From Gammaproteobacteria bacterium (GTDB lineage Bacteria; Pseudomonadota; Gammaproteobacteria; Steroidobacterales; SZUA-146): a stretch of DNA of 42,967 nt. Positions 1,518 to 42,967 of the stretch are shown here, one piece after another; position 1 is the first letter of the stretch, and the number at the start of each line of letters is the position of its first letter. The stretch covers positions 1 through 42,967 of the forward strand of contig JABDLQ010000274.1 of assembly GCA_013002925.1 (NCBI GenBank). The letters are read 5' to 3'. Under the pieces are notes generated by a model. It did no database searches, was not told where the DNA came from, and saw only the letters and a program-made list of their open reading frames with translations. A program made the position numbers and the translations under genes.

Positions 1518-1686
1518 AATAGTAGAGAGGCCATTTTAAGGCGTCCACAATTTGTTGTTACCCGCCGTTACATTCCAACCCCACCGTTAGGTTTTACAGA
1601 CAAGACGCTGAGACACTTTCGGCTGAGTTATTTTGATCAATTTACGCTGTGTTTATTTTTTTGAAAGATTTGAGATCAAATTACTT

Positions 1687-4600: not shown

Positions 4601-7600
4601 CGGTGTCTTTTACGGTTGCCAATGAGATCATTGTGCCGCCACCGACACTCAGTTTTTCCGCGAGTCCGGTCGCAGTTGATTTTGAGGGCTTTACTACGCT
4701 CACCTGGTCGACAACAAGTGCATCTTTATGCGTGGCGGGCGGAGACTGGACAGGAAGCCGCGCTGTCAGCGGCAGCGAGTCTGTTGGCCCGTTGACCAGC
4801 AATAAAACGTTTTTTTTGAGCTGCACCGGACCAGGTGGGAGCGTCAACCAGACCGCCACAGTACTTGTGGCGTCACCTGACGCCCCTGAGCTGACGATCA
4901 CAGCCACACCTTCTTCTGTTGATTACAACGGCGCTACAACAGTCTCCTGGACCACTACAGGCACAGAATCCTGCGTGGCCTCGGGCGGATGGGTGGGAGT
5001 CCGCCCGGTTTTTGGCTCGGAAACCGTCGGGACTCTGCAGGAAAACACTGATTTTACGCTGACATGCACAGGCCCTGGCGGATCTGTGACAGGTACGGCA
5101 GGCGTGACCGTCGCACCTGTGCCGGCGCCTACTGTGACTCTGGTTGCATCGCCTCCGGCGGTTGACTACAACGGTGCATCAACACTGAGTTGGAGCTCTA
5201 CCAATGCCGAATCGTGTGCGGCGTCGGGTGCCTGGAGCGGCGCACGTTCGTCCCTGGGCGTATTGACTGTCGGTCCGCTGGAAGAAACCGCGGAGTTTAC
5301 GCTGGTGTGTACGGGTGCAGGAGGCACGGGCAATGCCAGTGTCACCGTGACGGTGGCGGCGCCGGCGCCGCCCGAATTGAGCTTTACCGTTTCATCATCG
5401 TCAATCGCCTACGATGGCTCCATTTTGGCGTATTGGACAGCAACTAATGCCACCAGTTGTACCGCAAGCGGTGACTGGTCGGGCGTGCGGGGCCTCAACG
5501 GTGTTGAAGCGCTGGGTCCATTGCAGGAAGACGCCGTATACACATTAACCTGTAGTGGTCCCGGTGGATCGGTCAGCCACACCCAGACTATTTCAGTGGC
5601 CGCACCGCTGGCACCTGTCATCGGATTTACTACCGATGCAGCATCGGTAGATTACGGCAGCGGCGCCCAGTTAAGTTGGGATGTCAGTAATGCAACGAGT
5701 TGTATCGCAAGTGGTGCGTGGAGCGGCACACGGTCACTGACTGGCACCGAGGCCGTAGGTCCGCTGTTAAGCGACAGCACCTACACATTATCGTGCACAG
5801 GACTTGGCGGGACGGCGAGTCAGACGGTGACGGTGACGGTCAATCCGCCTGTACCCACGGTGTCCCTGACAGCGACACCGCTGTCCATTCCGTTTGAGGG
5901 CACAACGACGCTCTCGTGGACCAGCGAGCATGCTTCTGAATGTACAGCCAGCGGTGCATGGTCTGGTACTCTGGCAGGCAGTGGCACGCAAGTATCGGCG
6001 TCTTTATCCACTAACAGTACGTTCATGATTACGTGCACGGGCACTGGTGGGTCTGCTTCAGATTCACTGACGGTTAACGTAGCTGCACCCGGGGCTCCGT
6101 CCGTCGGTTTCTCTGCCAGTCCGGCAGCCGTGGCCAGTGGTGAGTCCACTACATTGACCTGGACATCAAGCAATACAACCGCTTGTAATGCGGCAGGTGA
6201 CTGGTCGGGTACCAAGGCGATCAATGGCAGTGAAAGCGTAGGCCCACTGACCGCCACCAGTACGTTTATACTGACGTGTTCTGGTGTAGGAGGCGACGTC
6301 ACACAGACCATTACAGTTCCGATATTGGTGCCTGAACCGGTTGTAACGTTAACCGCAGCGCCTGGGAGTGTGCCGCATAATGGCAGCACCACACTGACCT
6401 GGACCTCGACGAATGCGAACAGTTGTGAAGCGTTTGGCAGCTGGTCAGGGCTGCAGGCCCTGAACGGCAGCCTGACGGTTGATAATATCGATAGCGAACG
6501 CACGTATGCGTTGTACTGTGAAGGATCCGGTGGCACGGCCAGTGCACTGGTGACCATTGCGGTCGGCGCTCCACCTGTCCCTGAAATCAGTCTATCCACA
6601 GACGTTGTGACAGTCATGTATGGCGATACCGTGACCATCAACTGGGCAGCTACACAAGCCACAACATGTGAAGCCTACGGGGGTTGGTCAGGGATCAAGA
6701 CATTAATTGGCACAGAAGAGAGTTTGCCAATTACCAGTGACACTACGTATGTGCTGGTGTGCTCTGGCCCCGGTGGGCAGGTAGATGCCGCAACAGTCGT
6801 TACGGTTGCGGTTGAGCCCCCCAATGTAACGCTGGAGGCGTCGCCGCTGACGGTAGATTACGACGGTTCAACGACACTGACGTGGACTGCCACCGGAGCG
6901 GACTCATGCCAGGCTTTCGGCAGCTGGTCGGGTGTAAAGGTTACGTCAGGTACCGAGGTTATCGACAATCTTGCCAATACCGGAAATTTCGTATTGTTGT
7001 GTTCCGGCCCGGGAGGTGACGGGGACGCGAGTGTTTCGGTGTTGGTGAACCCGGCACCGCTACCGCTGGTCAGCCTGATCGCAGAGCCCGCAGAAGTCAG
7101 TTTTGGTGGTACAACAACCTTAAGCTGGTCAAGTCGCGATGCAGATACCTGTGAAGCATTTGGTGGCTGGTCCGGCGATCGTGATACTGAAGGGAGCTAT
7201 GTGGTCGAAGATTTACTGGCCACCACGAGTTTCACGCTTTTGTGTCAAGGTCCGGGTGGCAGTCGCGTGTTGATTGCCAATGTTGCGGTTGGAGCTCCGG
7301 AAGCGCCGATCATAGAGTTCTATGTCGAGCCCGATTTTATTGCTTACGGCGGCGCAGCTATTTTGAACTGGACAGTCAGTCAGGCTGATTCCTGTTTCGC
7401 AACCGGCGACTGGTCCGGCGACAAAGCCCTGACGGGTGTTGAAACAATCTCACCTTTGTACTCAACGGCAAATTTCGCATTGACATGTACCGGCGTGGGC
7501 GGCGGCTCGAGTGTGTCTGTCAGCGCAACCGTGGCGTCACTGGCTGACATGGCTTTACAGAATTTTGAAGACAATGAACTCAATACCGACCCGGAAGGTT

Positions 7601-10116
7601 GGATCGACACGGGTCCGGATTTTGTCACGACCCAGTTGTCATCCGCATTCAAGGTGCGTGATATTGCCGGTAGCCGTGCTCTGGCAATCACCCGTACGAC
7701 TGGGCTGGATATGCATTCACACTATGTGCTTGACGATTCGGGTAGCTGGCAGGACTATCGATATAGCGGACGGATTCGAATTCAGAACACCGAGGATAAG
7801 GCGGGAGTGACAATTCTGTCGGCGATGCCGGAGTTAGCTGCTTATTACCGTTTAGGTGTGGCAAGTACTGGTGAAAACTTTGTGTTGAGTAATGTTGGCA
7901 CGGGTGTGAACTGTGCAGGTGATCTGGACACTGGCGTACTTGCGAGTGCTGGCAACTGGTATCGTTTCGCCATCGAAGCGCAGACCAGCGAGACTCAAAC
8001 TGATGTACGTGCGCGTGTCTGGATCGATGGTGAAGCCGAGCCAGCAGAATGGCAGGCACAATGCACGGATACGGGCCCGGGTAGACGATTCCATGGGCGC
8101 GTAGGTGTCTGGGTCAGTCTGCAGTCGCCGCTCGCTGGTGGCGCCTGGGATGAATTGCTGGTCACGCCTTTGAGTGGAGCACCGGTATTACCACCACTTC
8201 TGACGTTTTACGCAAACCCGGTGACCGTAAGCAGCCTGGACTTCTCGACACTGACCTGGGAGGCTACTAATGCAGATAGCTGCGTCGCAAGCGGTGCCTG
8301 GGAAGGGGCGCGCAGCGTAAGTGGTAACGAACAAACAGCACCGCTGACGGAAAACAGCACTTTTACTATGCAGTGTAATGGCCCGGGAGGCAGTGCCACG
8401 AGTTCTGTTGTTGTAGCGGTTGGTGATGCGGTACCACCTGAACTTAGTTTTGCTGTAACGCCGGACAGCGTGTTTTCCGGGGACGATGTCACACTAACCT
8501 GGTCGTCGACTTCGACAGCGATATGTACCGCTTCCGGCGACTGGAGTGGCGCACGAAGCACCAGTGGTTCAGAGTCAATTTCCAATGTGATGGACGATAT
8601 GACATTCACCCTGGATTGTGTCGGCGCGGGAGGTAGCGTTTCACAGACAGTCAATCTTCTGCTGGCCGACATCATCCGCGACCCGCAACTTGCGTTCTCA
8701 GTTGACCCGCTGAGACTAGGTGTCGACGGCACCGTGATTCTCAACTGGAGCTCAGAAAACACCACCACATGTGAAGCCAATGGCAGCTGGAGCGGGTCTC
8801 GCCCGGTCAGCGGAGGTGAAGTAGTCGGCCCGATAAGCGCATCGGAGTCTTATGTCCTGATTTGTAGTGGTCGCGGTGGCACGGTCGCAGATGCTATTGC
8901 GGTTTCCTATGTCGATTCGGATAGTGATGCCATGCCAGATATTTGGGAGACTGCCGTTTTTGGAAGTTTGTCCAACAATGGACTGGGCGACACGGATGGT
9001 GATGGACTGCTTGATCAGGAGGAGTATCTGAGCGGCACTGATCCGCGCGATACAGATTCCGATGATGATGGACAGAACGATTTCGATGAACTTCAGTTTG
9101 GCAGTGATCCGCTGGATCCAGGCGATAATTTCGGTGATTCGTCGCCGGCGCAGCCGATTGTCGCTGACTCGGACAACGCCAGTCTCGCGTTACTGGAGAT
9201 TGACGTAATGAACGGATATAGCGACCCGGATGGAAATCCATTGCAATTTTCACACTGGCAGATCAGCTTGAGTGAGAGTTTTGATAGCATGGTGTTCGAC
9301 CGGGAAGTGTCGGGCTCAACGGCGTTGATGATACCGAGTGGGGTGTTGGACCCTGGGGTCACCTATTACATCAGAACGCGTCACGTGGATTCTTCCGATA
9401 CGCCATCCCCGTGGTCGGACGTTGCGACAATGGTTGCTGATACGGCGTACCCAAATGATCTTGATGGCAATGGCATCGATGACGAATTCCAGGTGCCTGG
9501 AAACCCGGACACCAACGGCAATGGAACGCCTGATCAGAGTGAGGGCATCTGCAATCTGTATGATGCGATGGGTGGCAATATCATTGGTATTACCAGCAAC
9601 GTCGGCGTGACTCGTTGCTATACCTCGGTATCAAATGATGTCGTAAGCGGCATTAGTTTACCGGATGGAATGGAATTGCCATTGGGGATGTTCAGTTTCC
9701 GCATCGAAGGTCTGTTTGTCGATGAAGCTTCGCCTGCACAGGTTTTTGTGAGCGTGTGGCTGCCCACGACTTATGATCCTGCCAGTGGTTGGTACAAGTG
9801 GGACGAAACAAGCGGCGAGTTAACCGACTATTCAGACTATGTCACCTACAATGACAATCGTGTGACAATCAGCCTGACCGATGGCGGCCCCGGAGATCAG
9901 GATGGGGTGGTTAACGGTATCATTGTTGATCCTAGTGGCCCTGCGATAGCCGCGGCGCCGCCGCCACCGCCGCCGCCGCCCGCACCGCCGACTACCCCGT
10001 CTGATCCGGATCCGTCGACACCTGTGGCGAGTGACAGTGGGGGAGGCGGCGCTCTGCACTGGGTGACGTTGCTGCTGCTGTATACGCTCGCATTGCGCAG
10101 ACGCCGGCCGCAGTAA
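1687..10116 (+). CDS. Giant secreted multidomain surface protein/adhesin (~2,810 aa): beta-propeller, polysaccharide-lyase-like domain, 17 Ig-like repeats, lectin-like domain, TSP3-like Asp repeats, choice-of-anchor U-like domain, GlyGly-CTERM
   Basis: ORF is open from TTG 1633; ATG 1687 gives a clean signal peptide (MSVYHIARK...HSTFA|D). The C-terminus 'LTDGGPGDQDGVVNGIIVDPSGP', Pro linker, then 'SGGGGALHWVTLLLLYTLALRRRRPQ' matches the rhombosortase GlyGly-CTERM signal. Confidence 0.9.
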   Translation: MSVYHIARKIQWVVLLVLSGAVVHSTFADAIDDLLPGQWYAAPNSKMQSVNPCPTGGCAYTGQTGFRSVQIAWSGAAFDTNSDRLIVWGGGHGDYWGNEVYVFDVNSSQWSRLTEPSTLGPNSQECTGINPDGRPRSRHTYNNLDFSPELNAFISFGNSGTSPANICADRKTWILPLDSATPEWQLGTDNTLSGATGMGATAYDPVRGTFWHQRSDVGGFGMYDPATHTWQNYGSRALAIYATGAIDPLRDQMLVIGGTASQAFVWDLANPNNPPLNLLSNSTFTSTDTDGIAGGRGVGLAYDPVVDAFVVWDGGTTVYTIDPDTWAVSRINADAGNTVNPGTAITAGTYGRFRYVPSRNVYILANGVDKDVFFYRLSDGGGSTAAPVIGMTLTNSNILIGEDADLSWSVAHADSCVASGDWSGSKPVAGSTTFPALTSDQTFTLTCSGAGGTSNKSITVTVSAPPPPPAGTEDWEARSTAPGVLSAIGFDVESEVTNWIHLDSKQDHVVWETANTSSGAGALRFNILKTDGANSGNWRRWLADDEREFVEGDEFYISYRQYIPEYYATHQFLGGGGWKQIIVSRNAGNMNGVNYVGTPTGSNQVNEIVMNNYLYRSLPQGYHRTTNGSYVGFYTGASTACSHTDFRLQNAVDRGPQSIGTACENDRARYGGLFSYGSRTGVPDPLTGAFTFTPDEWHSFKMWIKLGSQGTTTRNTHVKIWAAHDGEDWDLIIDRDDVDLGGGPAHNAYWLLPYDTGKQPDPTREDTYTLYDEVIVSLNDIAAPGATGSGATLPTVDLTASSGSILDGGSVQLNWTSTAADTCTASGGWSGAKATSGTETVGPLSATTSFVLTCTNADGSRSDSLTVTVEAPMPYTILQSKTIHHQDTFELDGATVSDGIFAFVSPGSGLSQVQFFLDDPTASGTPYSVEFVEPFDFAYDPVGGFDTTTIANGSHSLTAKLFLVGGEEQIISVSFTVANEIIVPPPTLSFSASPVAVDFEGFTTLTWSTTSASLCVAGGDWTGSRAVSGSESVGPLTSNKTFFLSCTGPGGSVNQTATVLVASPDAPELTITATPSSVDYNGATTVSWTTTGTESCVASGGWVGVRPVFGSETVGTLQENTDFTLTCTGPGGSVTGTAGVTVAPVPAPTVTLVASPPAVDYNGASTLSWSSTNAESCAASGAWSGARSSLGVLTVGPLEETAEFTLVCTGAGGTGNASVTVTVAAPAPPELSFTVSSSSIAYDGSILAYWTATNATSCTASGDWSGVRGLNGVEALGPLQEDAVYTLTCSGPGGSVSHTQTISVAAPLAPVIGFTTDAASVDYGSGAQLSWDVSNATSCIASGAWSGTRSLTGTEAVGPLLSDSTYTLSCTGLGGTASQTVTVTVNPPVPTVSLTATPLSIPFEGTTTLSWTSEHASECTASGAWSGTLAGSGTQVSASLSTNSTFMITCTGTGGSASDSLTVNVAAPGAPSVGFSASPAAVASGESTTLTWTSSNTTACNAAGDWSGTKAINGSESVGPLTATSTFILTCSGVGGDVTQTITVPILVPEPVVTLTAAPGSVPHNGSTTLTWTSTNANSCEAFGSWSGLQALNGSLTVDNIDSERTYALYCEGSGGTASALVTIAVGAPPVPEISLSTDVVTVMYGDTVTINWAATQATTCEAYGGWSGIKTLIGTEESLPITSDTTYVLVCSGPGGQVDAATVVTVAVEPPNVTLEASPLTVDYDGSTTLTWTATGADSCQAFGSWSGVKVTSGTEVIDNLANTGNFVLLCSGPGGDGDASVSVLVNPAPLPLVSLIAEPAEVSFGGTTTLSWSSRDADTCEAFGGWSGDRDTEGSYVVEDLLATTSFTLLCQGPGGSRVLIANVAVGAPEAPIIEFYVEPDFIAYGGAAILNWTVSQADSCFATGDWSGDKALTGVETISPLYSTANFALTCTGVGGGSSVSVSATVASLADMALQNFEDNELNTDPEGWIDTGPDFVTTQLSSAFKVRDIAGSRALAITRTTGLDMHSHYVLDDSGSWQDYRYSGRIRIQNTEDKAGVTILSAMPELAAYYRLGVASTGENFVLSNVGTGVNCAGDLDTGVLASAGNWYRFAIEAQTSETQTDVRARVWIDGEAEPAEWQAQCTDTGPGRRFHGRVGVWVSLQSPLAGGAWDELLVTPLSGAPVLPPLLTFYANPVTVSSLDFSTLTWEATNADSCVASGAWEGARSVSGNEQTAPLTENSTFTMQCNGPGGSATSSVVVAVGDAVPPELSFAVTPDSVFSGDDVTLTWSSTSTAICTASGDWSGARSTSGSESISNVMDDMTFTLDCVGAGGSVSQTVNLLLADIIRDPQLAFSVDPLRLGVDGTVILNWSSENTTTCEANGSWSGSRPVSGGEVVGPISASESYVLICSGRGGTVADAIAVSYVDSDSDAMPDIWETAVFGSLSNNGLGDTDGDGLLDQEEYLSGTDPRDTDSDDDGQNDFDELQFGSDPLDPGDNFGDSSPAQPIVADSDNASLALLEIDVMNGYSDPDGNPLQFSHWQISLSESFDSMVFDREVSGSTALMIPSGVLDPGVTYYIRTRHVDSSDTPSPWSDVATMVADTAYPNDLDGNGIDDEFQVPGNPDTNGNGTPDQSEGICNLYDAMGGNIIGITSNVGVTRCYTSVSNDVVSGISLPDGMELPLGMFSFRIEGLFVDEASPAQVFVSVWLPTTYDPASGWYKWDETSGELTDYSDYVTYNDNRVTISLTDGGPGDQDGVVNGIIVDPSGPAIAAAPPPPPPPPAPPTTPSDPDPSTPVASDSGGGGALHWVTLLLLYTLALRRRRPQ
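4636..7535 (+). repeat. 12 tandem ~80-82-aa Ig-like repeats inside the giant ORF (5 further copies at ~2842-3075, ~4063-4295 and ~8191-8910)
   Basis: Recurring motif P-x-V/L-x-F/L...L-x-W...C-x-A-S/F-G-x-W-S-G...G...L...F/Y-x-L-x-C-x-G-x-GG...V-x-V, diverged at DNA level. Confidence 0.9.
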
Positions 10117-28141: not shown

Positions 28142-29905
28142 GTGTCACATGTAAAAATTAAGAAAAACAAAAGCTTAGCGAAAAGTCATTTGCCACGTCG
28201 GGGTTCCAGAGCGGCTCTGCAGGCGATCAGCGACGGTGTTGTTGTCACTAATGAGCATGGGATGGTCGAATTCCTGAATCCCGCGGCTGAGTTGTTGTCG
28301 GGTTGGCGGACCCAGGATGCTGCCAATCTTCCGGTGGATAAAGTCGTTCATCTGTGTGACGAGAATTCCGGCCAACCCATGGAAGACACCGGCGTCTGGA
28401 AACGTCCTGACATCGCCTGTAACAAGGTCGGGCGTTGCACGTTACAGTCGCGTTCCGGTACTCAGCATCTGATCGACGCCAATGTCTCGCCAGTACTGGA
28501 CGCCGATGGCACCGTAACAGGAACGGTTCTGGTACTGCGGGATTTGAGTCAGGAAACCGGCTTGCTCGAACGACTCGATTACCAGGCAACGCATGATTCG
28601 CGTACCGGGTTGTTAAATCGTTCTGCCTTCGAACAGGCGGTTCGTGAATTGCATATGGACCCTGCCTCAGCGGGTGCAAGAAACGCAATCATTTACATAG
28701 ACGTGGATCAGTTCAAAATAATCAACGACACTTGTGGGCATGTCGCCGGCGATCATTTTCTTGAAGCGTTGTCCGAAAAATTGCAGAGCCGTGTCCGCGA
28801 AAGCGATGTGCTGGCGCGTCTGGGCGGTGACGAGTTTGGCGTGTTGTTGCGTGGCTGTACACGCCGCCATGCGCAAGCCCTGGCGGAACAGATTTGTCAC
28901 CTTGTTGAAGATATGCGTTTTGCCTGGGGTGGTCGCCTGCACCGTCACACGGCCAGCGTGGGAGTGACGGCCATCAGTGAAGATGCCAACGTAGCTTCAG
29001 TTTTGAGTGCCGCAGAAATTGCCTGTTTTACCGCAAAAGATCAGGGTCGAAACAGGGTGCACGTCTATCACAATGAAAATGTGCCTAGTCGGCATGTTGA
29101 AATGCAATGGGTGGCACGCATTTCGAGAGCGCTGGACGAAAACCGGCTCACCGCATTTCATCAACCCATCGTACCACTGGGCGATGACCATTCCCGGGAC
29201 GAGCGGCCGCACTACGAGCTATTGGTGCGCATGACTGATCGGTTCGGGCAAATCATACTGCCAAAATATTTTATTTCTGCAGCCGAACGGTACAACCTGA
29301 TGCCCAGTATCGATCGTTGGATGGTGACCGAAGTATTGTCGCGCCTGGTCTGGAGAAAAGATCTGGGACCCGGCTTCAAACCGTATACGCTGTCCATCAA
29401 TCTGTCGGGTACTTCGCTCAGTGACACCAGCTTTATGAACTTTCTCGAACGCGAGCTGGAACGCTATCCTATCGAGCCGCGCACTTTGTGTTTTGAGATA
29501 ACTGAGACTGCAGCCATCTCCAATATTGCGGACGTTGCCAACGTAATGCGCCGCCTAAAGAGTCGGGGCTGCATGTTTTCGCTGGACGACTTTGGCAGTG
29601 GCTTATCGTCGTTCGCCTATCTCAAAGGCCTGCCAGTCGACCTGATAAAAATTGATGGTGATTTTATCGCCGATATTCTGAACTCGCCGGCCGATACCGC
29701 TTTTGTGGATGCCATCTGTCGGGTCGCAAAAGCCATGAATATACGCACGGTGGCTGAGCACGTTGATTCAACTGAACTTTTGGACGCTTTGAGCGAGCTT
29801 GGCGTTGATTATGCGCAGGGCTATCACATCGCCAAACCGCGTCGGGTACACAATCGGTCAAGTTTTGCGTTGCCGGGCTCGAAAACGCCACTCGAGGCCG
29901 TCTGA
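28142..29905 (+). CDS. PAS-GGDEF-EAL diguanylate cyclase/phosphodiesterase
   Basis: PAS 'ISDGVVVTN...FLNPAAE'; 'RESD-VLARL-GGDEF' with I-site RxxD intact; EAL variant 'YELLVR', 'SINLS', 'FEITET', 'LDDFGSG', 'IKIDG' and 'AQGY'. Confidence 0.95.
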   Translation: MSHVKIKKNKSLAKSHLPRRGSRAALQAISDGVVVTNEHGMVEFLNPAAELLSGWRTQDAANLPVDKVVHLCDENSGQPMEDTGVWKRPDIACNKVGRCTLQSRSGTQHLIDANVSPVLDADGTVTGTVLVLRDLSQETGLLERLDYQATHDSRTGLLNRSAFEQAVRELHMDPASAGARNAIIYIDVDQFKIINDTCGHVAGDHFLEALSEKLQSRVRESDVLARLGGDEFGVLLRGCTRRHAQALAEQICHLVEDMRFAWGGRLHRHTASVGVTAISEDANVASVLSAAEIACFTAKDQGRNRVHVYHNENVPSRHVEMQWVARISRALDENRLTAFHQPIVPLGDDHSRDERPHYELLVRMTDRFGQIILPKYFISAAERYNLMPSIDRWMVTEVLSRLVWRKDLGPGFKPYTLSINLSGTSLSDTSFMNFLERELERYPIEPRTLCFEITETAAISNIADVANVMRRLKSRGCMFSLDDFGSGLSSFAYLKGLPVDLIKIDGDFIADILNSPADTAFVDAICRVAKAMNIRTVAEHVDSTELLDALSELGVDYAQGYHIAKPRRVHNRSSFALPGSKTPLEAV

Positions 29906-34173: not shown

Positions 34174-35070
34174 ATGGTAAACCACGCAGAACTTGCAATA
34201 TTGTTTGCTGATGTTGTTGGCAGCACCAAGCTCTACGAGCTAATGGGTGACGCCAAGGCACGCGTCACTGTGCAAAACTGTATAGACCTGATGACTCGTG
34301 CAACAGAGGAAAACTCGGGTAACGTCATCAAGACCATGGGTGACGAAGTTATGTGCACATTTCCAACGGTCGACAACGCGGTCGAGGCGGCCGCTCAGAT
34401 GCAGCAAATGATCAGTGAAGATCTCAGTGTCGACGATGTACCGGTTGCGATTCGTGTAGGGTTTCATTTTGGCCCGGTGATGCTCGAGGATGACGATGTG
34501 TTTGGCGGGGCTGTGCATACCGCTAATCGAATGACCAGTCAGGCAAAAGCCGCGCAAATTATCACGACTGCAATTGCCGTCGGAAAAATGTCTTCTGACT
34601 GGCAGTCCTGGACACGGCAAATTGATCTGGCGACCGTAAAAGGTGTCAAGGATGAAATTGCGTTGTTTGAGGTGTTGTGGCAGCGGGAAGACAACACCCG
34701 CATGTTGCCAACCATAAACTGGAGTCAGGCAACTGATGTGCGTAATCAGCGGCTGCGCCTGACCTATCGGGGCCAGGAAGTAGTGGTTGACAATGTTCGT
34801 CCCTACGTCAGTATTGGCCGAGCGGAAGACAGCGATATCGTTGTCAAAGATACGTTAATTTCGCGATTGCATGCACGTATCGAATTTGTACGGGGAAAAT
34901 TTGTCCTGTATGACGAAAGCACGAATGGAACGTGCGTAAAACAAGACTCCGGCGAAGAGCAATTTGTGCGGCGTGACAGCTTGCAAATCACGGGTGCTGG
35001 CTCTATCGGCCTGGGGCGTGTGCCACAGCCTAATTCACCGCAGGCAATACAATTCAATTATGAAGAATAG
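34174..35070 (+). CDS. Class III adenylate/guanylate cyclase with C-terminal FHA domain
   Basis: 'LFADVVGST', 'IKTMGD', 'RVGFHFG', 'DVFGGAVHTANR'; FHA 'IGR...SRLHA...STNGT'. Confidence 0.92.
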   Translation: MVNHAELAILFADVVGSTKLYELMGDAKARVTVQNCIDLMTRATEENSGNVIKTMGDEVMCTFPTVDNAVEAAAQMQQMISEDLSVDDVPVAIRVGFHFGPVMLEDDDVFGGAVHTANRMTSQAKAAQIITTAIAVGKMSSDWQSWTRQIDLATVKGVKDEIALFEVLWQREDNTRMLPTINWSQATDVRNQRLRLTYRGQEVVVDNVRPYVSIGRAEDSDIVVKDTLISRLHARIEFVRGKFVLYDESTNGTCVKQDSGEEQFVRRDSLQITGAGSIGLGRVPQPNSPQAIQFNYEE

Positions 35071-36621: not shown

Positions 36622-37626
36622 ATGACAGATTTCCGTCAACAGCGAGTATGGTGGCAGCTGCTTTGCGCAGCCGGAATCCTGTGGAGTCGTGCTGACGCAT
36701 TTGCTGAGGGCACAATCGCCGGTACCGACATCGCTAATACTGCCCGGATCGAGTACAGCGTCGGTGTCAATTCTGTCACCACGTCCTCAAACACCGCCGT
36801 AGTGACGGTTGCAGAGATTATCGACGTCGATGTCGTGTTACAAAGCGGCCAGGTACCCGTAGGCCCCGGTGAGACAAACCAGGGCCTCGTGTTCACGATT
36901 ACCAATACCGGTAATGGTACTGAAACGTTTACGCTGATTGCGGACAGCACGCTGCCAGGTGATGATTTTGATCCGGTGTTGTCGTCACCGAACCCGATAT
37001 TTTTTGACACCGATGGCAGCGGTGATTTCTCGGCTGCAGACGTCGCCTATCTTCCGGGAACGAATGATCCAGAATTGAGTCCGGACGAGCATATCACTGT
37101 AGTGGTCCTGAACGACATACCAGCCAGCGGTTTGGTTGACACCCAGACTGGCAGCACGCGCCTGCACGTTGAAGCACGCACAGGGGTGGGTGTGGCCGGC
37201 ACAATTTTTGTCGGTGCCGGTGATGGGGGTGTGGATGCGATGGCGGGAGCCACGGAAGGCGATGGCGAAGACACCGGCGAGTACATGATCAAGACCATCG
37301 ACCTGAATGTTTCAAAATCGGCCGGCATTAGCGATCCCTTTGGCAACGCTCTACCTGTGCCAGGTGCCGAAATTACCTATCGCATCGAAGTTTCGGTAAC
37401 CGGTACCGGGGTGGCATCCGGTGTTGTGATGACAGATGTTATTCCTGCGCACACCACGTATGTGCCCGGGACTATCGAGCTTAATGGTACGCAGCTCACT
37501 GACGCACCTGATGCCGATGTCGGTGAGTTTAACGCCGGCACTGATCCAGCCGTTGCGGTGCAAATAGGCGATATTTCTGAAGCCGGCGGCCCACAGGTTG
37601 TCGAATTTAAAGTTGTAATCAATTGA
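36622..37626 (+). CDS. Secreted DUF11-domain pilin-like protein
   Basis: Signal peptide ending 'ADAFA|E'; N-terminal 'GTIAGTDIANTA'; middle 'FTITNTGN'; C-terminal 'LNVSK...PGAEITYRI...TDVIPAHTTYVPGT'. Confidence 0.85.
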   Translation: MTDFRQQRVWWQLLCAAGILWSRADAFAEGTIAGTDIANTARIEYSVGVNSVTTSSNTAVVTVAEIIDVDVVLQSGQVPVGPGETNQGLVFTITNTGNGTETFTLIADSTLPGDDFDPVLSSPNPIFFDTDGSGDFSAADVAYLPGTNDPELSPDEHITVVVLNDIPASGLVDTQTGSTRLHVEARTGVGVAGTIFVGAGDGGVDAMAGATEGDGEDTGEYMIKTIDLNVSKSAGISDPFGNALPVPGAEITYRIEVSVTGTGVASGVVMTDVIPAHTTYVPGTIELNGTQLTDAPDADVGEFNAGTDPAVAVQIGDISEAGGPQVVEFKVVIN

Positions 37627-37643
37627 CCCGCAAGGGGGAGCAC

Positions 37644-38132
37644 ATGATGAAATCTATCCGCATGTTCATAACCGTCTCTGTAGCCATTGCAAGTGTCGCG
37701 GTTGGCGCCCAGCAAGCACCGGTTTCAATGACGACAGTTGCAGAGAAAGAGGAAGCCTATACCGACGGGCAGGGTATTGAACGCACCCGCCTGGTACCCG
37801 TGGCAACCGTTATTCCCGGTGATCGCATCGTCTACACGATTACTTTTGCAAACAAGGGAGAGGAAGTCGCAGATAACATCAATGTCGTCGATCCGATTCC
37901 TGAACAGATGCGCTTTATTGCGGGCTCGGCGTTTGGGCCGGGCACCAAAATCACTTTTTCCGCTGATGGCGGAAAGACGTTTGGACTGCCTGGTGACATT
38001 ACGGTAGTTGATGACACAGGGCGCGTGCGATCTGCATCACCAGCGGATTACACCCATATCAGATGGAAATTTCTGAGCCCGCTGAAACCTGGAACACAAG
38101 CGTATGCGCAGTTTAAGGCAGAGCTGAAATAA
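37644..38132 (+). CDS. Small secreted single DUF11-like domain protein
   Basis: RBS GGGGGAG before ATG 37644/37647; signal peptide; 'PGDRIVYTITFANKG...VVDPIPEQMRFIAGSA'. Confidence 0.85.
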   Translation: MMKSIRMFITVSVAIASVAVGAQQAPVSMTTVAEKEEAYTDGQGIERTRLVPVATVIPGDRIVYTITFANKGEEVADNINVVDPIPEQMRFIAGSAFGPGTKITFSADGGKTFGLPGDITVVDDTGRVRSASPADYTHIRWKFLSPLKPGTQAYAQFKAELK

Positions 38133-38186
38133 GTTATCCCGGGCCTGCTGATGGCAGGTCTGGCTGTTTTTATTGAGGAGTGTATT

Positions 38187-39446
38187 GTGAAATTTTCACG
38201 CAAAAACCTGTACCCGCTGTTGCAGCTGCTGATTCCCGCGTTAGCATTGATTTATACGCAAGCCGGGCTGGCTGCCGGAACTGATCCGGGAGGTACAGCA
38301 GCGGGTACCAGCGTAGCCAACCAGGCGACACTGGACTATGAAATTGGTGGTATCCCACAAACCCAGGTGTTGAGTGACAATGACGGTAATCCCGCCAACG
38401 GCTCCAATGCAACGACCTTTGTCGTTGATCGCAAACTGGACGCACTGGTCAGCGAAAATGGCGCCACCTACAACAGTTCCACCACTGCCACAGTGGTACC
38501 CGGACTTTCCCAGGGAGGTGGCAGTACCGGGGCCGTGTTGTCATTTACGGTAACCAACGAGGGCAATGAGGTTCAGGACTTTAGCCTGTCGGCAGCGCCC
38601 ACGGTGTTTGATCCTTTCAGCGGTACGGATAATTTTGATGCCACAAACGTCAATATTTTTGTTGATGGCAATGGTAATGGTACCTATGAACCGGCGATTG
38701 ACACCGCAACTTACATTGACGAACTGGACTACTTTGGGAACGGCGCAGGTAATCCGAGCTCCACTGTAGTTTTTGTGGTCGCCGATATTCCGGCGGTACA
38801 GGTCAACGGTGACATTGCGGCCTATGTGCTGAATGCGCAGGTAGCTGAAGGCGGCACCGCTGCCACACAAGGCGCAGATATCACGACTGATGATTCCGCA
38901 GTGGCCGATGATCCTGCAGTTGTACAGGATGTGTTTGCAGATAGTGAAAACACCAACAATGCCGGAGATGGAATCAGCGATGGAATCGCTTCTATTGAAG
39001 ATGCATACCTGATATCGTCGCCTACACTGACGATTGCGAAAAGTTCAGCGGTGATTAGTGATCCGTTTACATGCCCGGTTTTGCCATGTGCACCGGGTAC
39101 GGATCCGAAGGCGATACCGGGAGCGGTCATTGAGTATACGATCGCCATTGTTAACGCTACAGGAGCAGCTGCCGCGACCAATGTCAGCGTGTCAGATGAT
39201 CTGTCATCTGAAATCGTTGGTGGTGGGGGCACCGAAAGTATCGACTTTTTGCTGGGTCAATATGGTGGCGCTGGCGCCGACATAGAGTTGACTGTGAACA
39301 GTGGAGGAACCGTGGTAACCAATCTCGGTGCATCAGCGTTTGACGGTGACGCGGGTCAGTTTGTTGCCAACGTTGTGACAGTGACAGTCGCTAACCTGGC
39401 GGGTGGGGAGTCTGCAGAAGTCAGGTTCCGCGTGGAAATTCAGTAA
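38187..39446 (+). CDS. Secreted DUF11-domain pilin-like protein (candidate major subunit)
   Basis: GTG 38187 follows GAGGAG; signal peptide; 'GTAAGTSVANQA'; 'FTVTNEGN'; C-terminal 'LTIAK...AIPGAVIEYTIAIVN...VSDDL'. Confidence 0.85.
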   Translation: MKFSRKNLYPLLQLLIPALALIYTQAGLAAGTDPGGTAAGTSVANQATLDYEIGGIPQTQVLSDNDGNPANGSNATTFVVDRKLDALVSENGATYNSSTTATVVPGLSQGGGSTGAVLSFTVTNEGNEVQDFSLSAAPTVFDPFSGTDNFDATNVNIFVDGNGNGTYEPAIDTATYIDELDYFGNGAGNPSSTVVFVVADIPAVQVNGDIAAYVLNAQVAEGGTAATQGADITTDDSAVADDPAVVQDVFADSENTNNAGDGISDGIASIEDAYLISSPTLTIAKSSAVISDPFTCPVLPCAPGTDPKAIPGAVIEYTIAIVNATGAAAATNVSVSDDLSSEIVGGGGTESIDFLLGQYGGAGADIELTVNSGGTVVTNLGASAFDGDAGQFVANVVTVTVANLAGGESAEVRFRVEIQ

Positions 39447-39471
39447 CGCGAGTAAGGATACGGGAATACGT

Positions 39472-42400
39472 ATGTTGAGCCACCTGCTGATGGTATCCGG
39501 ATTGCCCGGCGCGCTGCGCTGGCTGATGCGATGTGCTCAACAACGCAGGCAACGCAAGCGCACTGATTCCATAGTTGGCGGGGGTGCTTCGACACACTCC
39601 AGACGTGGAGCGCGACGCTGGTCAGCGCGCTTTACGGTTCTCCTGTTTTTACCCGTGTGCGGGATAACTGCAACCAGCGCCCAGACACTACCCGGGACAC
39701 AGCTGCAGAATATTGCCGGGATCACCTGGCTGGCAGCCCCCGGAGGGGTGAGCAGCGTTACCAGTAATCCGGTCACTATTCGCACAGTATTGCCTGATTC
39801 AAGCGCTGCAGTAAGTTTCACCCGGCCCGCTCTCGTAAGCGGAACAGTTGATACCTTGTACGAAACAGCCTGTCAGGGTTCGGCGGGCACAGTTGCGTTA
39901 CCTGATCCGACGTTGCTGGATGGCACCTCCTTGCCGACAGGGAGCAGCCTGCAATTTTCCACCAGTAATGTGTTTCACGCCGGCGAGCCCCTGTTTATCC
40001 GGCTTGAAGATGCTGATCAAAACCTTGACGGTCTGAGTATAGATTTCATCGATGTGACCGTGGAGTTTGAGGCGACCGGCGATGTCGAGTTTATCAAACT
40101 GGCGGAAACCGGAGAAAACTCAGGAGTATTCCTTGGGTATGTGCCGACAAGCATTACTGCTGCCATACGCAGCGATTGTGTGCTTCAGGTTGCAGTCAAC
40201 GATCGCGCTACAGTGCGTTACACCGATCCCACTGATGGCGCGGATATTGCCGCAAACAGCGCGCTGGTCGATCCGCGCGGAGTCGTGTTTGACTCGGCAA
40301 CTGGTCAACCTGTCGATGGCGTCACCATTACTCTGATCGATACGTTGACCGGGATGCCCGCGATCGTGCGTGGAGACGACGGCATCAGCAGCTACCCTGC
40401 GCAAGTGATTTCAGGTGGGAGCGCCACTGACGGGGCTGGAAATAATTATACTTTTGCACCTGGCGGCTATGTTTTTCCGCTGGTTGCCCCGGGTAGCTAT
40501 CGGTTACAGGTAGATTCGCCGCCAGGATTCAGCTCACCATCACTGGTGTCAATTGCCGAGCTACAGCAATTGCCCGGTGCACCGTTTGCATTGGGAGCGG
40601 CCTCGTATGGTGCAGTGTTTGTGGTGACTCCAGGCCCGATCATTCATATCGATATCCCACTTGACACAGCATCCAGCGATTTGTTTTTGCAAAAATCAAC
40701 CGTGACCACCGTGGCGGCGCCGGGAGATTTTGTGCAATACGAGTTGCGGCTGGACAATGCCAATCCGACCTCGAACGTTACTGCTGCCCGCATTCTGGAT
40801 CAATTGCCCGCGGGGTTTCGCTATGTTCGTGGCTCCACCGTTATTGACGGCAACACCGCAGCCGATCCACAAATTGATACGGACGGACGTTCGCTGACAT
40901 TTACCCTGGGTACGCTCGGCCCCACGCAGAGCCGACGTGTAAGCTATGTGACGGAAATTACTACTGCAACGAACGGTCAGCAAGCAACAAATACCGCCGT
41001 TGCCCAGGCCGGTGGTGCGGCGCAATCGAACATTGCGAGCACCACAATTACCCTGGCGGAAGATTTGTTCGCGAGCCGCAGCATACTGATTGGGCGAATT
41101 ATCGAGGGCAGTTGCGACAACGATGTCAGTAACGACACTGTTGGTCTTGCCAACGCCCGCGTGTATATGGAGGACGGCCGTTACGCGATTACCGATGAGG
41201 GTGGACGTTTTCATTTCGAAGGAATCCAGCCTGGTGCGCACGTAGTGCAACTTGATGTAGACAGCCTGCCGCGTGACTACGAAGTAATGCCCTGCCAGGA
41301 GAACTCGCGGTTTGCAGGCCGTTCATTTTCGCAGTTCGTCGATTTGCGTCCCGGCGCGCTGTGGCGCGCAGATTTTTATGTGCAGAAAACCCCGCCCAAG
41401 ACCGGTGACGTAAGCATTGAGCTGTCCAGTGTGCCCAATGGGGACCGGGTTGAGTACGCGCTGGAGATAACGGGTGCGGGTTCTGTTGGTCTCGAAGATA
41501 TCCGCAGCATGGTGTTGCTGCCCGACGGGTCAAATTATCTTGCCGGCAGCGCCACCCTCGACGCGCAACCGGTTGTTGATCCTGAAGTTGAAGGTGCGGT
41601 GCTCGCCTGGAACCTGGGGGCGCGCAGCGGTGACTGGCACCATGTTCTACGCTTCTCCACGCAAATAAATTCTCATGGCAGCCGTGAGCATCTGACCAAA
41701 GCAATGGCGCTGTTCACTACACCGGCCAAAAAACAACAGCGCACGCCGTTGGCTGAAAACCTGTTCGTGTTTGTGCCGCCGGCGTATGAACGCATGGAGT
41801 GGGTGCTGGAGCCACGGTTTGGTGTGCGCAACGCGCAGTTAACTGATACAGATCGACAAGACATCAAAATGCTGGTGTCACGCATCGATCTTACTCGTGA
41901 CATTCGGGTGCGTGCTGTAGGACATACTGATAATGTACGCATCGCCCCGGAAAATCGCAGGGAGTATGCGAACAACTACGAGCTGTCGCTGGATCGTGCG
42001 CGCACGGTAGCAAACTATCTGCGTGATCTGTTGAAGTTGACACCCAGCCAGATAACGGTCGAAGGCAAAGGGCCGGACATGCCGGTGGCAAGTAACACGA
42101 CGCGGGATGGGCGTGCACGCAATCGCCGCGTTGAGCTGACCATTTGGGCGGAACGGCAACAAATCGGCTTGCAACAAATTTCCGCAGAGCAAAGTCGCCT
42201 GAACAGTGGCGCGCAAAAGGCAACCGTAACGGGCTCGTTAACAGCGGATGAAATGCAGGATACGGCAGTTCCACAAAGCGACGACGATCTGTACCTCGAT
42301 ACTGCATGGGCAGATCGCCTTTCACCTGGCATTGAGCTGCTGCTGCCACGTGAAGGATTTAACCCGGCGATACCGAGCCTCAAAATTGCTGTCAAGCATG

Positions 42401-42967
42401 CTCCGCAGCACAAAGTCAGCGTTTCGATAAACGGTGAGCCTGTCAGCGGCATACATTTTGATGGCGTGACGCGTAAGCAGGATAAATCTGTGATTATCAG
42501 TCGCTGGCGTGGCACTAACATCGTGCCCGGTGATAATCAGCTTGAGATCGAGGTGCGTGATCGCGATGGCGCGGTTGCTCAACGCATCGTGCGTAACGTT
42601 CACTACAGCGGCGGGCCGGTGCGGGCGCGATTCAATCAGAGCAGCTCGAAACTGGTCGCAGATGGCAGAAGCCGGCCGCTCATTGTACTGGATATGTTTG
42701 ATCGCGAGGGTTACCCGGCCAGACCAGCTGCGGTCGGAGTTTATCATGTCGCTCCTCCGTATCGTTCCCAGTGGGAGGTTGATGCTGCGCGCGAAAACCA
42801 ATTGATCAGTGTGGGTGACCGTGATCCGGTTTACTCCCTCAATGAGCAAGGGCAGGCAGTGATAGAACTGGAGCCGACCAGTCGCGCCGGGGAGGTGGTG
42901 TTAAACCTGAGTTTTGAAAACAATCGGGAACAGGAAGTTCGTGTCTGGCTGGCCCCGGCTGCGCGTG
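39472..42967 (+). CDS. Very large exported DUF11 + OmpA-like domain protein, 3'-truncated by the window (absent from the ORF track)
   Basis: Frame +1 reads open from ATG 39472 to the window end (>1,160 codons). Signal '...VLLFLPVCGITATSA|Q'; complete DUF11 at ~40678-41056; OmpA-like 'VGHTDN...NYELSLDRARTV...GKGPDMPVASN...GRARNRRVEL' at ~41806-42150. Exact start is uncertain. Confidence 0.88.
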   Translation, partial: MLSHLLMVSGLPGALRWLMRCAQQRRQRKRTDSIVGGGASTHSRRGARRWSARFTVLLFLPVCGITATSAQTLPGTQLQNIAGITWLAAPGGVSSVTSNPVTIRTVLPDSSAAVSFTRPALVSGTVDTLYETACQGSAGTVALPDPTLLDGTSLPTGSSLQFSTSNVFHAGEPLFIRLEDADQNLDGLSIDFIDVTVEFEATGDVEFIKLAETGENSGVFLGYVPTSITAAIRSDCVLQVAVNDRATVRYTDPTDGADIAANSALVDPRGVVFDSATGQPVDGVTITLIDTLTGMPAIVRGDDGISSYPAQVISGGSATDGAGNNYTFAPGGYVFPLVAPGSYRLQVDSPPGFSSPSLVSIAELQQLPGAPFALGAASYGAVFVVTPGPIIHIDIPLDTASSDLFLQKSTVTTVAAPGDFVQYELRLDNANPTSNVTAARILDQLPAGFRYVRGSTVIDGNTAADPQIDTDGRSLTFTLGTLGPTQSRRVSYVTEITTATNGQQATNTAVAQAGGAAQSNIASTTITLAEDLFASRSILIGRIIEGSCDNDVSNDTVGLANARVYMEDGRYAITDEGGRFHFEGIQPGAHVVQLDVDSLPRDYEVMPCQENSRFAGRSFSQFVDLRPGALWRADFYVQKTPPKTGDVSIELSSVPNGDRVEYALEITGAGSVGLEDIRSMVLLPDGSNYLAGSATLDAQPVVDPEVEGAVLAWNLGARSGDWHHVLRFSTQINSHGSREHLTKAMALFTTPAKKQQRTPLAENLFVFVPPAYERMEWVLEPRFGVRNAQLTDTDRQDIKMLVSRIDLTRDIRVRAVGHTDNVRIAPENRREYANNYELSLDRARTVANYLRDLLKLTPSQITVEGKGPDMPVASNTTRDGRARNRRVELTIWAERQQIGLQQISAEQSRLNSGAQKATVTGSLTADEMQDTAVPQSDDDLYLDTAWADRLSPGIELLLPREGFNPAIPSLKIAVKHAPQHKVSVSINGEPVSGIHFDGVTRKQDKSVIISRWRGTNIVPGDNQLEIEVRDRDGAVAQRIVRNVHYSGGPVRARFNQSSSKLVADGRSRPLIVLDMFDREGYPARPAAVGVYHVAPPYRSQWEVDAARENQLISVGDRDPVYSLNEQGQAVIELEPTSRAGEVVLNLSFENNREQEVRVWLAPAAR

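Follow-up and report, generated by a model that had tools for sequence, protein, structure and literature searches.

Covalently linked pili are a textbook feature of Gram-positive bacteria, where they depend on sortases, and the pili of Gram-negative bacteria are, to our knowledge, held together non-covalently. Here we describe a four-gene operon from a gammaproteobacterium, located on contig JABDLQ010000274.1 of assembly GCA_013002925.1; the window that was analysed is this entire 42,967-base contig of a metagenome-assembled genome. The four genes, named A, B, C and D in their order, occupy the final 6.3 kb of the window and all lie on the same (+) strand. They probably encode a fibre that is built without sortase and without chaperone and usher, by donor-strand complementation of a split CLIPPER domain (formerly DUF11) followed by an autocatalytic Lys-Asn lock. 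An earlier note on this DNA had interpreted the operon as such a complemented and cross-linked fibre, and the sequence comparisons and predicted models presented here support that interpretation.

In chaperone-usher pili the N-terminal extension of a subunit fills the incomplete immunoglobulin (Ig) fold of the previous subunit, and a large outer-membrane protein forms the base. The proposed fibre would resemble these pili (type 1, P and the archaic Csu/CupE; PMC11821415) in an acceptor-only end unit, in N-terminal extensions and in an outer-membrane base protein. It differs from them in that three strands would be donated, that each junction would carry a reactive triad of Lys, Asp and Asn, and that the base protein D itself carries a donor. 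No chaperone or usher family was found by Pfam in A-D, in the C-terminal part of D or in three full-length D homologues.

The assembly principle has precedents. For BsaA of Clostridium perfringens, a member of the TasA family, one report describes an ‘exchange and lock’ mechanism, in which donor-strand exchange is followed by an Asn35-Lys74 bond catalyzed by Glu56; the process is independent of sortase, and oligomerisation is lost in mutants (10.1101/2024.11.04.621531). As in BsaA, the donor of the operon holds the Asn and the acceptor the Lys and an acidic residue, and an N-terminal segment would enter the beta-sheet of the next monomer. BsaA differs from the operon in its TasA-like fold, its Gram-positive host, its processing by SipW and its single donated strand, and it has neither a middle domain nor an outer-membrane component. 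No TasA-like Pfam family was detected in A-D and no SipW signal peptidase gene lies within the four-gene operon in 65 of 65 loci; nor was any sequence relation to BsaA seen, Pfam giving in this comparison only DUF11-type matches for A, B and D. In the reading proposed here the operon works like the TasA/BsaA family; it is not a member of it. The threads of Sulfolobus acidocaldarius (Saci_0406) are likewise built from strand-complemented subunits that are apparently covalently linked by an isopeptide bond involving Asn, here between an N-terminal amine and the Asn (PMC9715654), but they are archaeal, glycosylated, free of an outer membrane and of another fold. Haloarchaeal tafi and TasA itself are described as using non-covalent exchange (PMC11821415).

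The covalent chemistry proposed for the operon has its closest relatives in the CLIPPER stalk domains found in fibrillar adhesins and in the CnaA-type domains of Gram-positive pilins that sortase assembles, which belong to the same family and use the same Lys, Asp and Asn residues. There the bond forms within one chain, and the chains are joined by sortase or only a single chain exists, whereas in the operon the domain is cut and its halves lie at opposite ends of the protein. SpyTag/SpyCatcher is an engineered split CnaB domain, in which a partial Ig domain with Lys and an acidic residue reacts spontaneously with a separate strand that bears the Asx; it is man-made, derives from CnaB and not CnaA, and uses Asp instead of Asn; the operon would be its natural, polymerising counterpart. 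DUF11 has been renamed CLIPPER; the crystal structure 9IFR contains an intramolecular Lys715-Asn806 bond with Asp748, and the survey of these isopeptide domains contains none of the terms ‘permut’, ‘donor’ or ‘strand-swap’ (PMC12617251).

Neither A nor C ends in an LPXTG-type signal, and no sortase family was found among the larger open reading frames of the window that were scanned. Direct reading shows an Ala-X-Ala-type site at the end of the signal peptide in A, B and C and Thr-Ser-Ala in D; A-D have no Cys at the cleavage site, the mark of lipoprotein precursors such as those that a protease matures by strand exchange in the type V pili of Bacteroidia. The operon falls outside the chaperone-usher, sortase, TasA and type V families. 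The earlier note knew of no named system with this layout, and for a Gram-negative split-DUF11 fibre no paper was found in the full-text literature, the coverage of which largely excludes subscription journals and supplementary files; the principle as such, donor-strand exchange with an autocatalytic Lys-Asn lock in BsaA and a related link in archaeal threads, is already known from the reports named above. New are the split CnaA/CLIPPER fold, a donor of three strands, the occurrence in a diderm cell with a dedicated giant outer-membrane protein that bears a donor itself, and a fourth protein that is free of reactive residues.

Gene A (36622-37626, 334 aa) is the first gene of the operon and encodes a pilin-like subunit, likely the major subunit of the shaft. 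Its mature N-terminal strands, the donor (residues 29-66, positions 36706-36819), contain Asn39 (codon 36736-36738). Next come a middle domain with the fold of a complete Ig-like sandwich (residues 64-226, 36811-37299) and the acceptor, a DUF11/CLIPPER domain without its last strands (residues 227-334, 37300-37623) that carries Lys232 (37315) and Asp272 (37435); the stop codon comes directly after strand G. Gene C (38151-39446, 431 aa counted from the first ATG) is a paralogue of A (27-35% identity in tblastn) and encodes a second pilin-like subunit of the same design, with donor strands at residues 45-96 (38283-38438) containing Asn57 (codon 38319-38321) and an acceptor at residues 285-431 (39003-39443) that holds Lys297 (39039) and Asp349 (39195) and again ends after strand G. 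Between them lies gene B (37644-38132), which encodes a small secreted protein of 162 aa with an acceptor-type DUF11 fold, no donor strands and no Lys/Asp pair; its frame spans 37623-38132, in which translation probably begins at the ATG at 37644, preceded by GGGGGAG. The part of gene D inside the window (39403-42967) comprises 1188 codons, is open at the contig end and belongs to what is probably a large anchor and outer-membrane protein. D has N-terminal donor strands (residues 94-136, 39682-39810) with Asn103 (codon 39709-39711) and an intact CLIPPER/DUF11 domain (residues 424-556, 40672-41070) with Lys431 (40693), Asp466 (40798) and Asn530 (40990) on one chain. All ten Lys, Asp and Asn residues given here are in frame, at the positions that the earlier note had assigned to them.

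That the DUF11 domain is split in A and C and intact in D, as had been claimed before, holds by Pfam coverage, by the end points of hhalign alignments and by the order of repeats in a tandem protein. The Pfam family DUF11 (PF01345) scores 26.7 bits in A, 31.4 in B and 34.5 in D against a cut-off of 24.6; the match is full only in D (residues 426-543, profile positions 1-108 of 114) and partial in A and B (profile positions 9-79 and 8-53, respectively). In C only TIGR01451 gives a match, at residues 320-355 (28.7 bits, cut-off 24). When the C-terminal domains were aligned with hhalign to the intact domain of D (133 columns), A covered columns 3-96, C 1-97 and B 7-96, with probabilities of 95.9%, 97.3% and 96.6%, and the alignments of all three stop at the last or last-but-one residue of the protein. 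The C-termini of A (...VEFKVVIN) and C (...VRFRVEIQ) end right after the last strand. A, C and D also share homology over the first 35-50 residues of their mature chains: a profile hidden Markov model (HMM) of the A donor matches C 48-72 (independent E-value, iE, 1.2e-10) and D 95-126 (iE 0.0035), and that of the D donor matches A (1.3e-6) and C (7.9e-7). The window has 170 stop-to-stop frames with a length of 80 aa or more, and among them donor matches below 1e-4 occur only in A, C and D; against B the donor HMMs reached at best iE 0.32, and no donor segment was found. In a tandem DUF11 protein of 5697 aa (P0121), a match to the A acceptor is followed 3-5 residues on by a match to the A donor in all 20 repeats listed; the segment that an intact domain has directly after the end point of A is thus found at the N-terminus of A. 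As judged from these alignments, the domain is cut in the G-H loop. Another database protein, P0134 (1335 aa), has a strong donor-like segment at 29-64 (iE 1e-8), a weak second match at 1031-1066 (iE 0.07) and an A-like acceptor at its end (1226-1335), and may be a long variant of the pilin or two genes fused by a calling error.

In a VIA-align comparison with about 48,000 chains, the intact domain of D (model residues 331-459) matched best 9IFR (9ifr_A, Z 14.1, root-mean-square deviation 2.3 A, 116 of 123 residues), and the spacing of K431, D466 and N530 agrees with that structure. The next matches were EbpB, CppA, SpaD, LrpA and RrgB (Z 11.8-13.1), all of them isopeptide-bearing Gram-positive pilins. 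The C-terminal domain of A alone reached a Z of only 7.7-9.6 with various Ig folds, as it should if, in sequence order, the domain lacks three strands. The middle domain of A (model range 36-198) aligned with macroglobulin MG, CARDB and CLIPPER domains (Z 7.9-9.6); the aligned ranges cover neither residues 1-35 of the A model nor 1-36 of the D model. Foldseek with the A monomer gave multi-Ig matches with template modelling (TM) scores of about 0.3 (integrin legs, AgI/II C-domains and the donor-strand constructs of CfaB and Saf), which are uninformative on whether the donor serves its own chain (cis) or another one (trans). A sequence search of the PDB with A yielded chance-level matches only, to designed Cake proteins and to Asp-rich loops of the calmodulin type, and these were rejected. 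The weak calmodulin matches stem from a loop of the middle domain, DTDGSGDFSAAD (residues 129-140, window 37006-37041), which fits the 12-residue EF-hand-type calcium pattern DxDxSGxFxxxD; F128, D129, D131, G134 and D140 are invariant in 24 A homologues. By its fit to the pattern it is a candidate calcium loop.

In the mechanism that we propose, the pilins A and C would be exported by Sec, each with strands H-J and their Asn at the N-terminus, the Ig-like domain in the middle, and a C-terminal CLIPPER domain that extends to strand G and provides the Lys together with the Asp as catalyst. Each subunit would use its N-terminal strands to complete the C-terminal domain of a neighbor. The triad of Lys, Asp and Asn would thereby be rebuilt across two chains, and the bond known from the intact CLIPPER domain would therefore join these chains. 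The product that satisfies every half-domain would be B-(A/C)n-D. D would close the cell-proximal end, its N-terminal donor filling the last free acceptor, and B would take the leftover donor at the distal end as a cap or would hold donors transiently in the periplasm as a chaperone. We infer from this arrangement the formation of the bond between the chains and an open-ended polymerisation at the cell surface.

Conservation was counted in alignments from 80 species-level loci, with 66-80 rows per protein, and it bears out the prediction that the triad is kept. In A, N39 is found in 75 of 80 loci (5 with Ser), K232 and D272 in 80 of 80; of 119 A homologues from the database, 115 have the Asn (the other 4 have Ser), 118 the Lys and 119 the Asp. 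In C, N57 is kept in 72/72 and K297 and D349 in 67/72 each. The five exceptions at K297 are gaps from cut sequences, and those at D349 are four gaps and one Glu. The donor N103 of D is kept in 63/66 rows and its internal triad (K431, D466, N530) in 61-62 of 66. The pattern is largely kept in operons of other families of the class at 30-45% identity; exceptions are Ser for the Asn of A in L085 and a D without internal triad in L087 and L088, and in L086 the alignment is uncertain at the Lys of A and at the Asp of C. Five operons in four genomes outside the class retain Asn, Lys and Asp in A and C and the donor Asn in D. The five A loci with Ser instead of Asn39 do not form one clade, and all five keep Lys232 and Asp272, as does the distant operon L085 its Lys and Asp; this fits an acceptor that is served by the donor of another chain. 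The operon holds three Asn donors (A, C and D) and two Lys/Asp acceptors (A and C), so that the conserved Asn of D is usable only on another chain, and when D's donor takes the acceptor of another chain, that chain's own donor is set free.

Inter-chain insertion, for which a modelling check had been proposed, was indeed predicted in a model of three copies of mature A (ESMFold2 with a custom alignment and 3 controls). The median interaction prediction score from aligned errors (ipSAE) was 0.59, and the best of 3 controls reached 0.00; between runs at least 88% of the contacts agree, and the predicted local distance difference test (pLDDT) of the partner is at least 85. In the calibration of the tool for complexes, 20 of 30 solved homo-pairs reach the mark compared with 1 of 23 solved single chains, which is only a rough guide here, where a custom alignment and three copies were used. 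The model is a linear head-to-tail chain in which two of the three donors insert in trans: segment 2-38 of copy 3 packs against residues 197-250 and 299-306 in copy 2, and the same segment of copy 1 against 202-250 and 305-306 in copy 3. Residue 244 (Asp272) touches 11 (Asn39) and 13, and residues 204 (Lys232) and 206 touch the donor residues 31 and 33, which places Lys232 in the interface. The predicted A-A contact positions are nearly invariant. The support for trans insertion comes from this model.

B had been described as an acceptor half, which is correct for its fold (hhalign 96.6%, see above) and incorrect for the reactive residues. The position of the Asp is Asn in 63/75 homologues. 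The candidate Lys positions are not conserved: K42 is Lys in 37/75, and position R56, in the HMM register, is a mixture of Arg, Lys and Glu in the rows printed. B without Lys and Asp is also found in distant operons of the same class and outside the class. Because B has neither residue, any junction with B would be non-covalent, and B may be a non-covalent cap or a chaperone. The latter would make B a periplasmic decoy half-pilin that holds the donor strands of a pilin non-covalently, and perhaps shields its acceptor, until that pilin is handed over at D. The conserved fold with Asn in place of Asp and no conserved Lys would suit a transient partner whose junction never locks; B also adjoins A upstream of a terminator-like hairpin, and some device is needed to keep the pilins from locking themselves in cis. 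The same facts are explained by a non-covalent cap, and by Pfam no likeness to PapD-type chaperones was detected in B. We regard a chaperone as a possible but doubtful role; as this concerns only the part played by B, its likelihood overlaps with that of the fibre as a whole and is not additive to it.

D is considerably larger than the window allows one to see. On a second contig of the same genome (C430) the frame continues for about 830 more codons, the overlap being the last 541 bases at 98% identity, and in 40 related loci the D homologues form one uninterrupted frame of more than 1900 aa; D is therefore about 2000 aa long, and the window holds the first 60% of it. Within the overlap (window 42427-42967, L003 11391-11931) identity is 98% and not 100%, and the contig probably broke at strain-level variation inside gene D. 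The free N-terminal donor that had been noticed in D is confirmed by the HMM cross-matches, by the Asn kept in 63/66 and by the completeness of both DUF11-type domains of D, in which no acceptor for its own donor was found. The second of these domains (residues 676-784, window about 41428-41754) has no Pfam listing and aligns to the intact domain with an hhalign probability of 98.5%; a Thr takes the place of the Asn in the alignment, which does not reach the Lys column (Glu there by direct reading). This is probably a stalk domain without cross-link. Pfam further lists CarboxypepD_reg-type domains. The N-terminal 800 residues of D look like a load-bearing stalk, in which the intact, internally cross-linked CLIPPER domain would be combined with CnaB-like CarboxypepD_reg/SdrD_B domains.

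An OmpA-like peptidoglycan-binding domain (PF00691, residues 806-908, positions 41818-42126, E 4.4e-14) scores 53.1 bits against a cut-off of 27.2. The fibre had earlier been thought to be rooted on an OmpA protein; the OmpA domain is present in D of the window, yet it is not universal, and D runs on beyond it with a barrel-like part. The OmpA region is unmatched in lineages L009, L056, L067, L070 and L075, where D has about 1560-1850 aa, and Pfam finds no OmpA match in the full-length D of L067. Outside the class (L090-L094) D has 1660-1760 aa, with residues 664-969 unmatched in L090-L093 and a gap at 662-898 in L094. Peptidoglycan binding is therefore an add-on that the core does without. 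The 830-aa C-terminal part of D shows about 35 amphipathic segments in a crude hydropathy count, no Cys and no hydrophobic helix. It has no match to Pfam or NCBIfam families, and a profile search of the PDB gave two chance-level hits (best E 0.096). Its nearest Atlas clusters are automatically named ‘outer membrane protein’, and it reaches a TM score of 0.40-0.41 to clusters with a minority of porin or outer-membrane barrel members. From these features we infer a large outer-membrane barrel that would anchor the fibre and is perhaps a pore through which subunits pass; together with the OmpA domain, where present, the barrel-like part would tie the fibre to wall and outer membrane.

The order A-B-C-D, which the earlier note expected to be conserved, is found in 65 of the 65 loci with enough downstream DNA, and in these the operon consists of the four genes only; the other 15 of the 80 loci are cut by the end of the available DNA. 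Other families of the class share this order, as do genomes of a second proteobacterial class. For the A family, 588 word-indexed hits were counted at E<=1e-3, and in a library of 1.84 billion proteins A matches 7978, 3319 and 797 cluster representatives at E 1e-3, 1e-10 and 1e-30, the first two counts including giant tandem DUF11 proteins. A scan with one genome per species gave at least 538 species-level loci. The best 80 loci are all from metagenome-assembled genomes and are named as Woeseiaceae, Steroidobacteraceae, Povalibacter and unclassified Gammaproteobacteria. In a sample of the class, 9 of 401 genomes match at E<=1e-20 (the genome of the window and G296 included), and in a sample of the phylum 9 of 401 at E<=1e-15 (the genome of the window and G120 included). 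Six of the seven genomes outside the class belong to one family and are all 100% complete; one complete genome outside the class (G573) has two full A-B-C-D operons (L092 and L093). The neighbors of the operon are housekeeping genes and partly syntenic, which makes the operon a chromosomal, vertically kept trait. DNA of the operon is present in metagenomes of beach sand and sediment.

Several observations weigh against the proposed fibre. In hhalign the short donor profiles reach only 0.3-1.4% with the intact domain of D, which is not significant alone; the Asn falls on the Asn for A and D, and the C donor is aligned in a wrong register. The pair Lys232-Asn39 is absent from the 25 lowest-error contacts of the trimer, the pass of which may reflect memory of solved donor-strand complexes and supports binding without proving it. 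The AlphaFold2 monomer of A is confident (pLDDT 95.8, predicted TM score 0.80, N-terminal blocks 90-95), so that a self-complemented cis fold may be sterically possible; if this fold forms first, the bond would lock the monomer. A cap formed by B would not be cross-linked. The barrel is deduced from automatic cluster names, a weak likeness (TM 0.40-0.41) and a crude hydropathy count, and the N-terminal part of D could be placed either in the periplasm or at the surface. Among the sequencing runs listed with the operon, none is an RNA run.

The main rival to a fibre linked in trans is a cis-locked, circularly permuted monomer, in which A and C would be monomeric two-domain proteins of the surface or periplasm whose N-terminal strands return to their own C-terminal domain, with an isopeptide bond in cis, and D and B would pair only with each other. 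The A monomer model, confident throughout, would agree with this, and an intramolecular reaction is kinetically favored. Nested or interrupted CnaA-like domains are known from Gram-positive pilins, the survey giving 137-211 plus 587-717 for GBS104-like_Ig and also naming RrgA (PMC12617251), and self-complemented FimA monomers have been described in another report (PMC6615685). Against it stands the three-copy model, which had the choice and picked trans insertion for 2/3 donors. The A lineages with Ser39 retain Lys232 and Asp272. The donor Asn of D is kept in 63/66, yet in a world of cis bonds its only partner would be B, which has no Lys and Asp, and this conservation would be useless. Moreover, a confident N-terminus is no proof of docking in cis, because the N-terminus of D is predicted with the same four-strand pattern as in A (pLDDT 87-91) and has no acceptor in cis. 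Overall, we consider the permuted monomer rather unlikely.

It is also improbable that the four proteins form a defined multi-chain stalk with one copy of each, D-(A/C)-(C/A)-B, joined by strand complementation into what would be a fibrillar adhesin in four pieces. The donors of A, C and D would balance the acceptors of A, C and B, and A and C are distinct paralogues in every operon examined. Single-chain adhesins with a CLIPPER stalk and an OmpA-like anchor exist as well, for example the source protein of 9IFR (PMC12617251). The A-A junction is confidently modelled, however, and nothing visible blocks a homopolymer. A further, weak point against a fixed stoichiometry is the terminator-like hairpin with T-run after B (38139-38163, + strand, 11 pairs, consensus scan), which hints at unequal expression and lies between B and C, adjoining the end of B. 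It overlaps the first ATG of C, and for this reason C may start at the alternative GTG at 38187. In a crude scan, hairpins similar to that of the window follow B in 15/65 loci, A in 1/65 and C in 8/65; the number of sites in the consensus scan of the window is not above that in shuffles. As a weak hint, the hairpin after B is a possible attenuator that sets A and B above C and D. An excess of A and B over C and D would fit A as the major subunit of the fibre and B as its stoichiometric partner.

Upstream of the operon, at a distance of 1.5 kb, lies a fusion of a nucleotide cyclase with FHA (34174-35070, + strand), of which a homologue is present in 30 of the 80 related loci, and further upstream a PAS-GGDEF-EAL protein (28142-29905, + strand). 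Both may be regulators of the operon or mere synteny. At 1633-10116 (+ strand) the window has an open reading frame of 2827 aa in which no Pfam family reaches E<=1e-4; Thr, Ser and Gly are abundant, the start is signal-peptide-like, and at the C-terminus a Pro-rich stretch is followed by a run of Gly, a hydrophobic helix and RRRR, an arrangement that we take to resemble a sorting tail of the GlyGly-CTERM/PEP-CTERM type.

Taken further, and put forward only tentatively, the operon could represent an unrecognised class of Gram-negative pili, in which D, with its about 2000 aa and without a known family, would be pore, platform, terminator and covalent anchor at once, the pilins would be natural halves of the SpyTag/SpyCatcher type that polymerise and lock themselves without chaperone, usher, sortase or ATP, and B, a dead half-pilin deprived of Asn, Lys and Asp, would be the chaperone that holds the donors and keeps the pilins from locking in cis.

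Should the proposed fibre be confirmed, a widespread group of bacteria from sediment and soil, namely Woeseiaceae, Steroidobacteraceae and their relatives, with at least 538 species-level loci, hundreds of clusters and operons outside the class, would have a fibre with covalent links all the way from its first pilin junction to D, the anchor, by means of a split, self-reacting domain. ‘Exchange and lock’, of which one Gram-positive matrix protein is so far the demonstrated case and archaeal threads a proposed one, would extend to diderm bacteria and to the CnaA/CLIPPER fold, and an unannotated family of large outer-membrane proteins would gain a function. Each operon would also supply natural orthogonal pairs for protein ligation, with three donors and two reactive acceptors. 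The operon also cautions that surveys of ‘intramolecular’ isopeptide domains based on single-chain models can miss or misread split domains.

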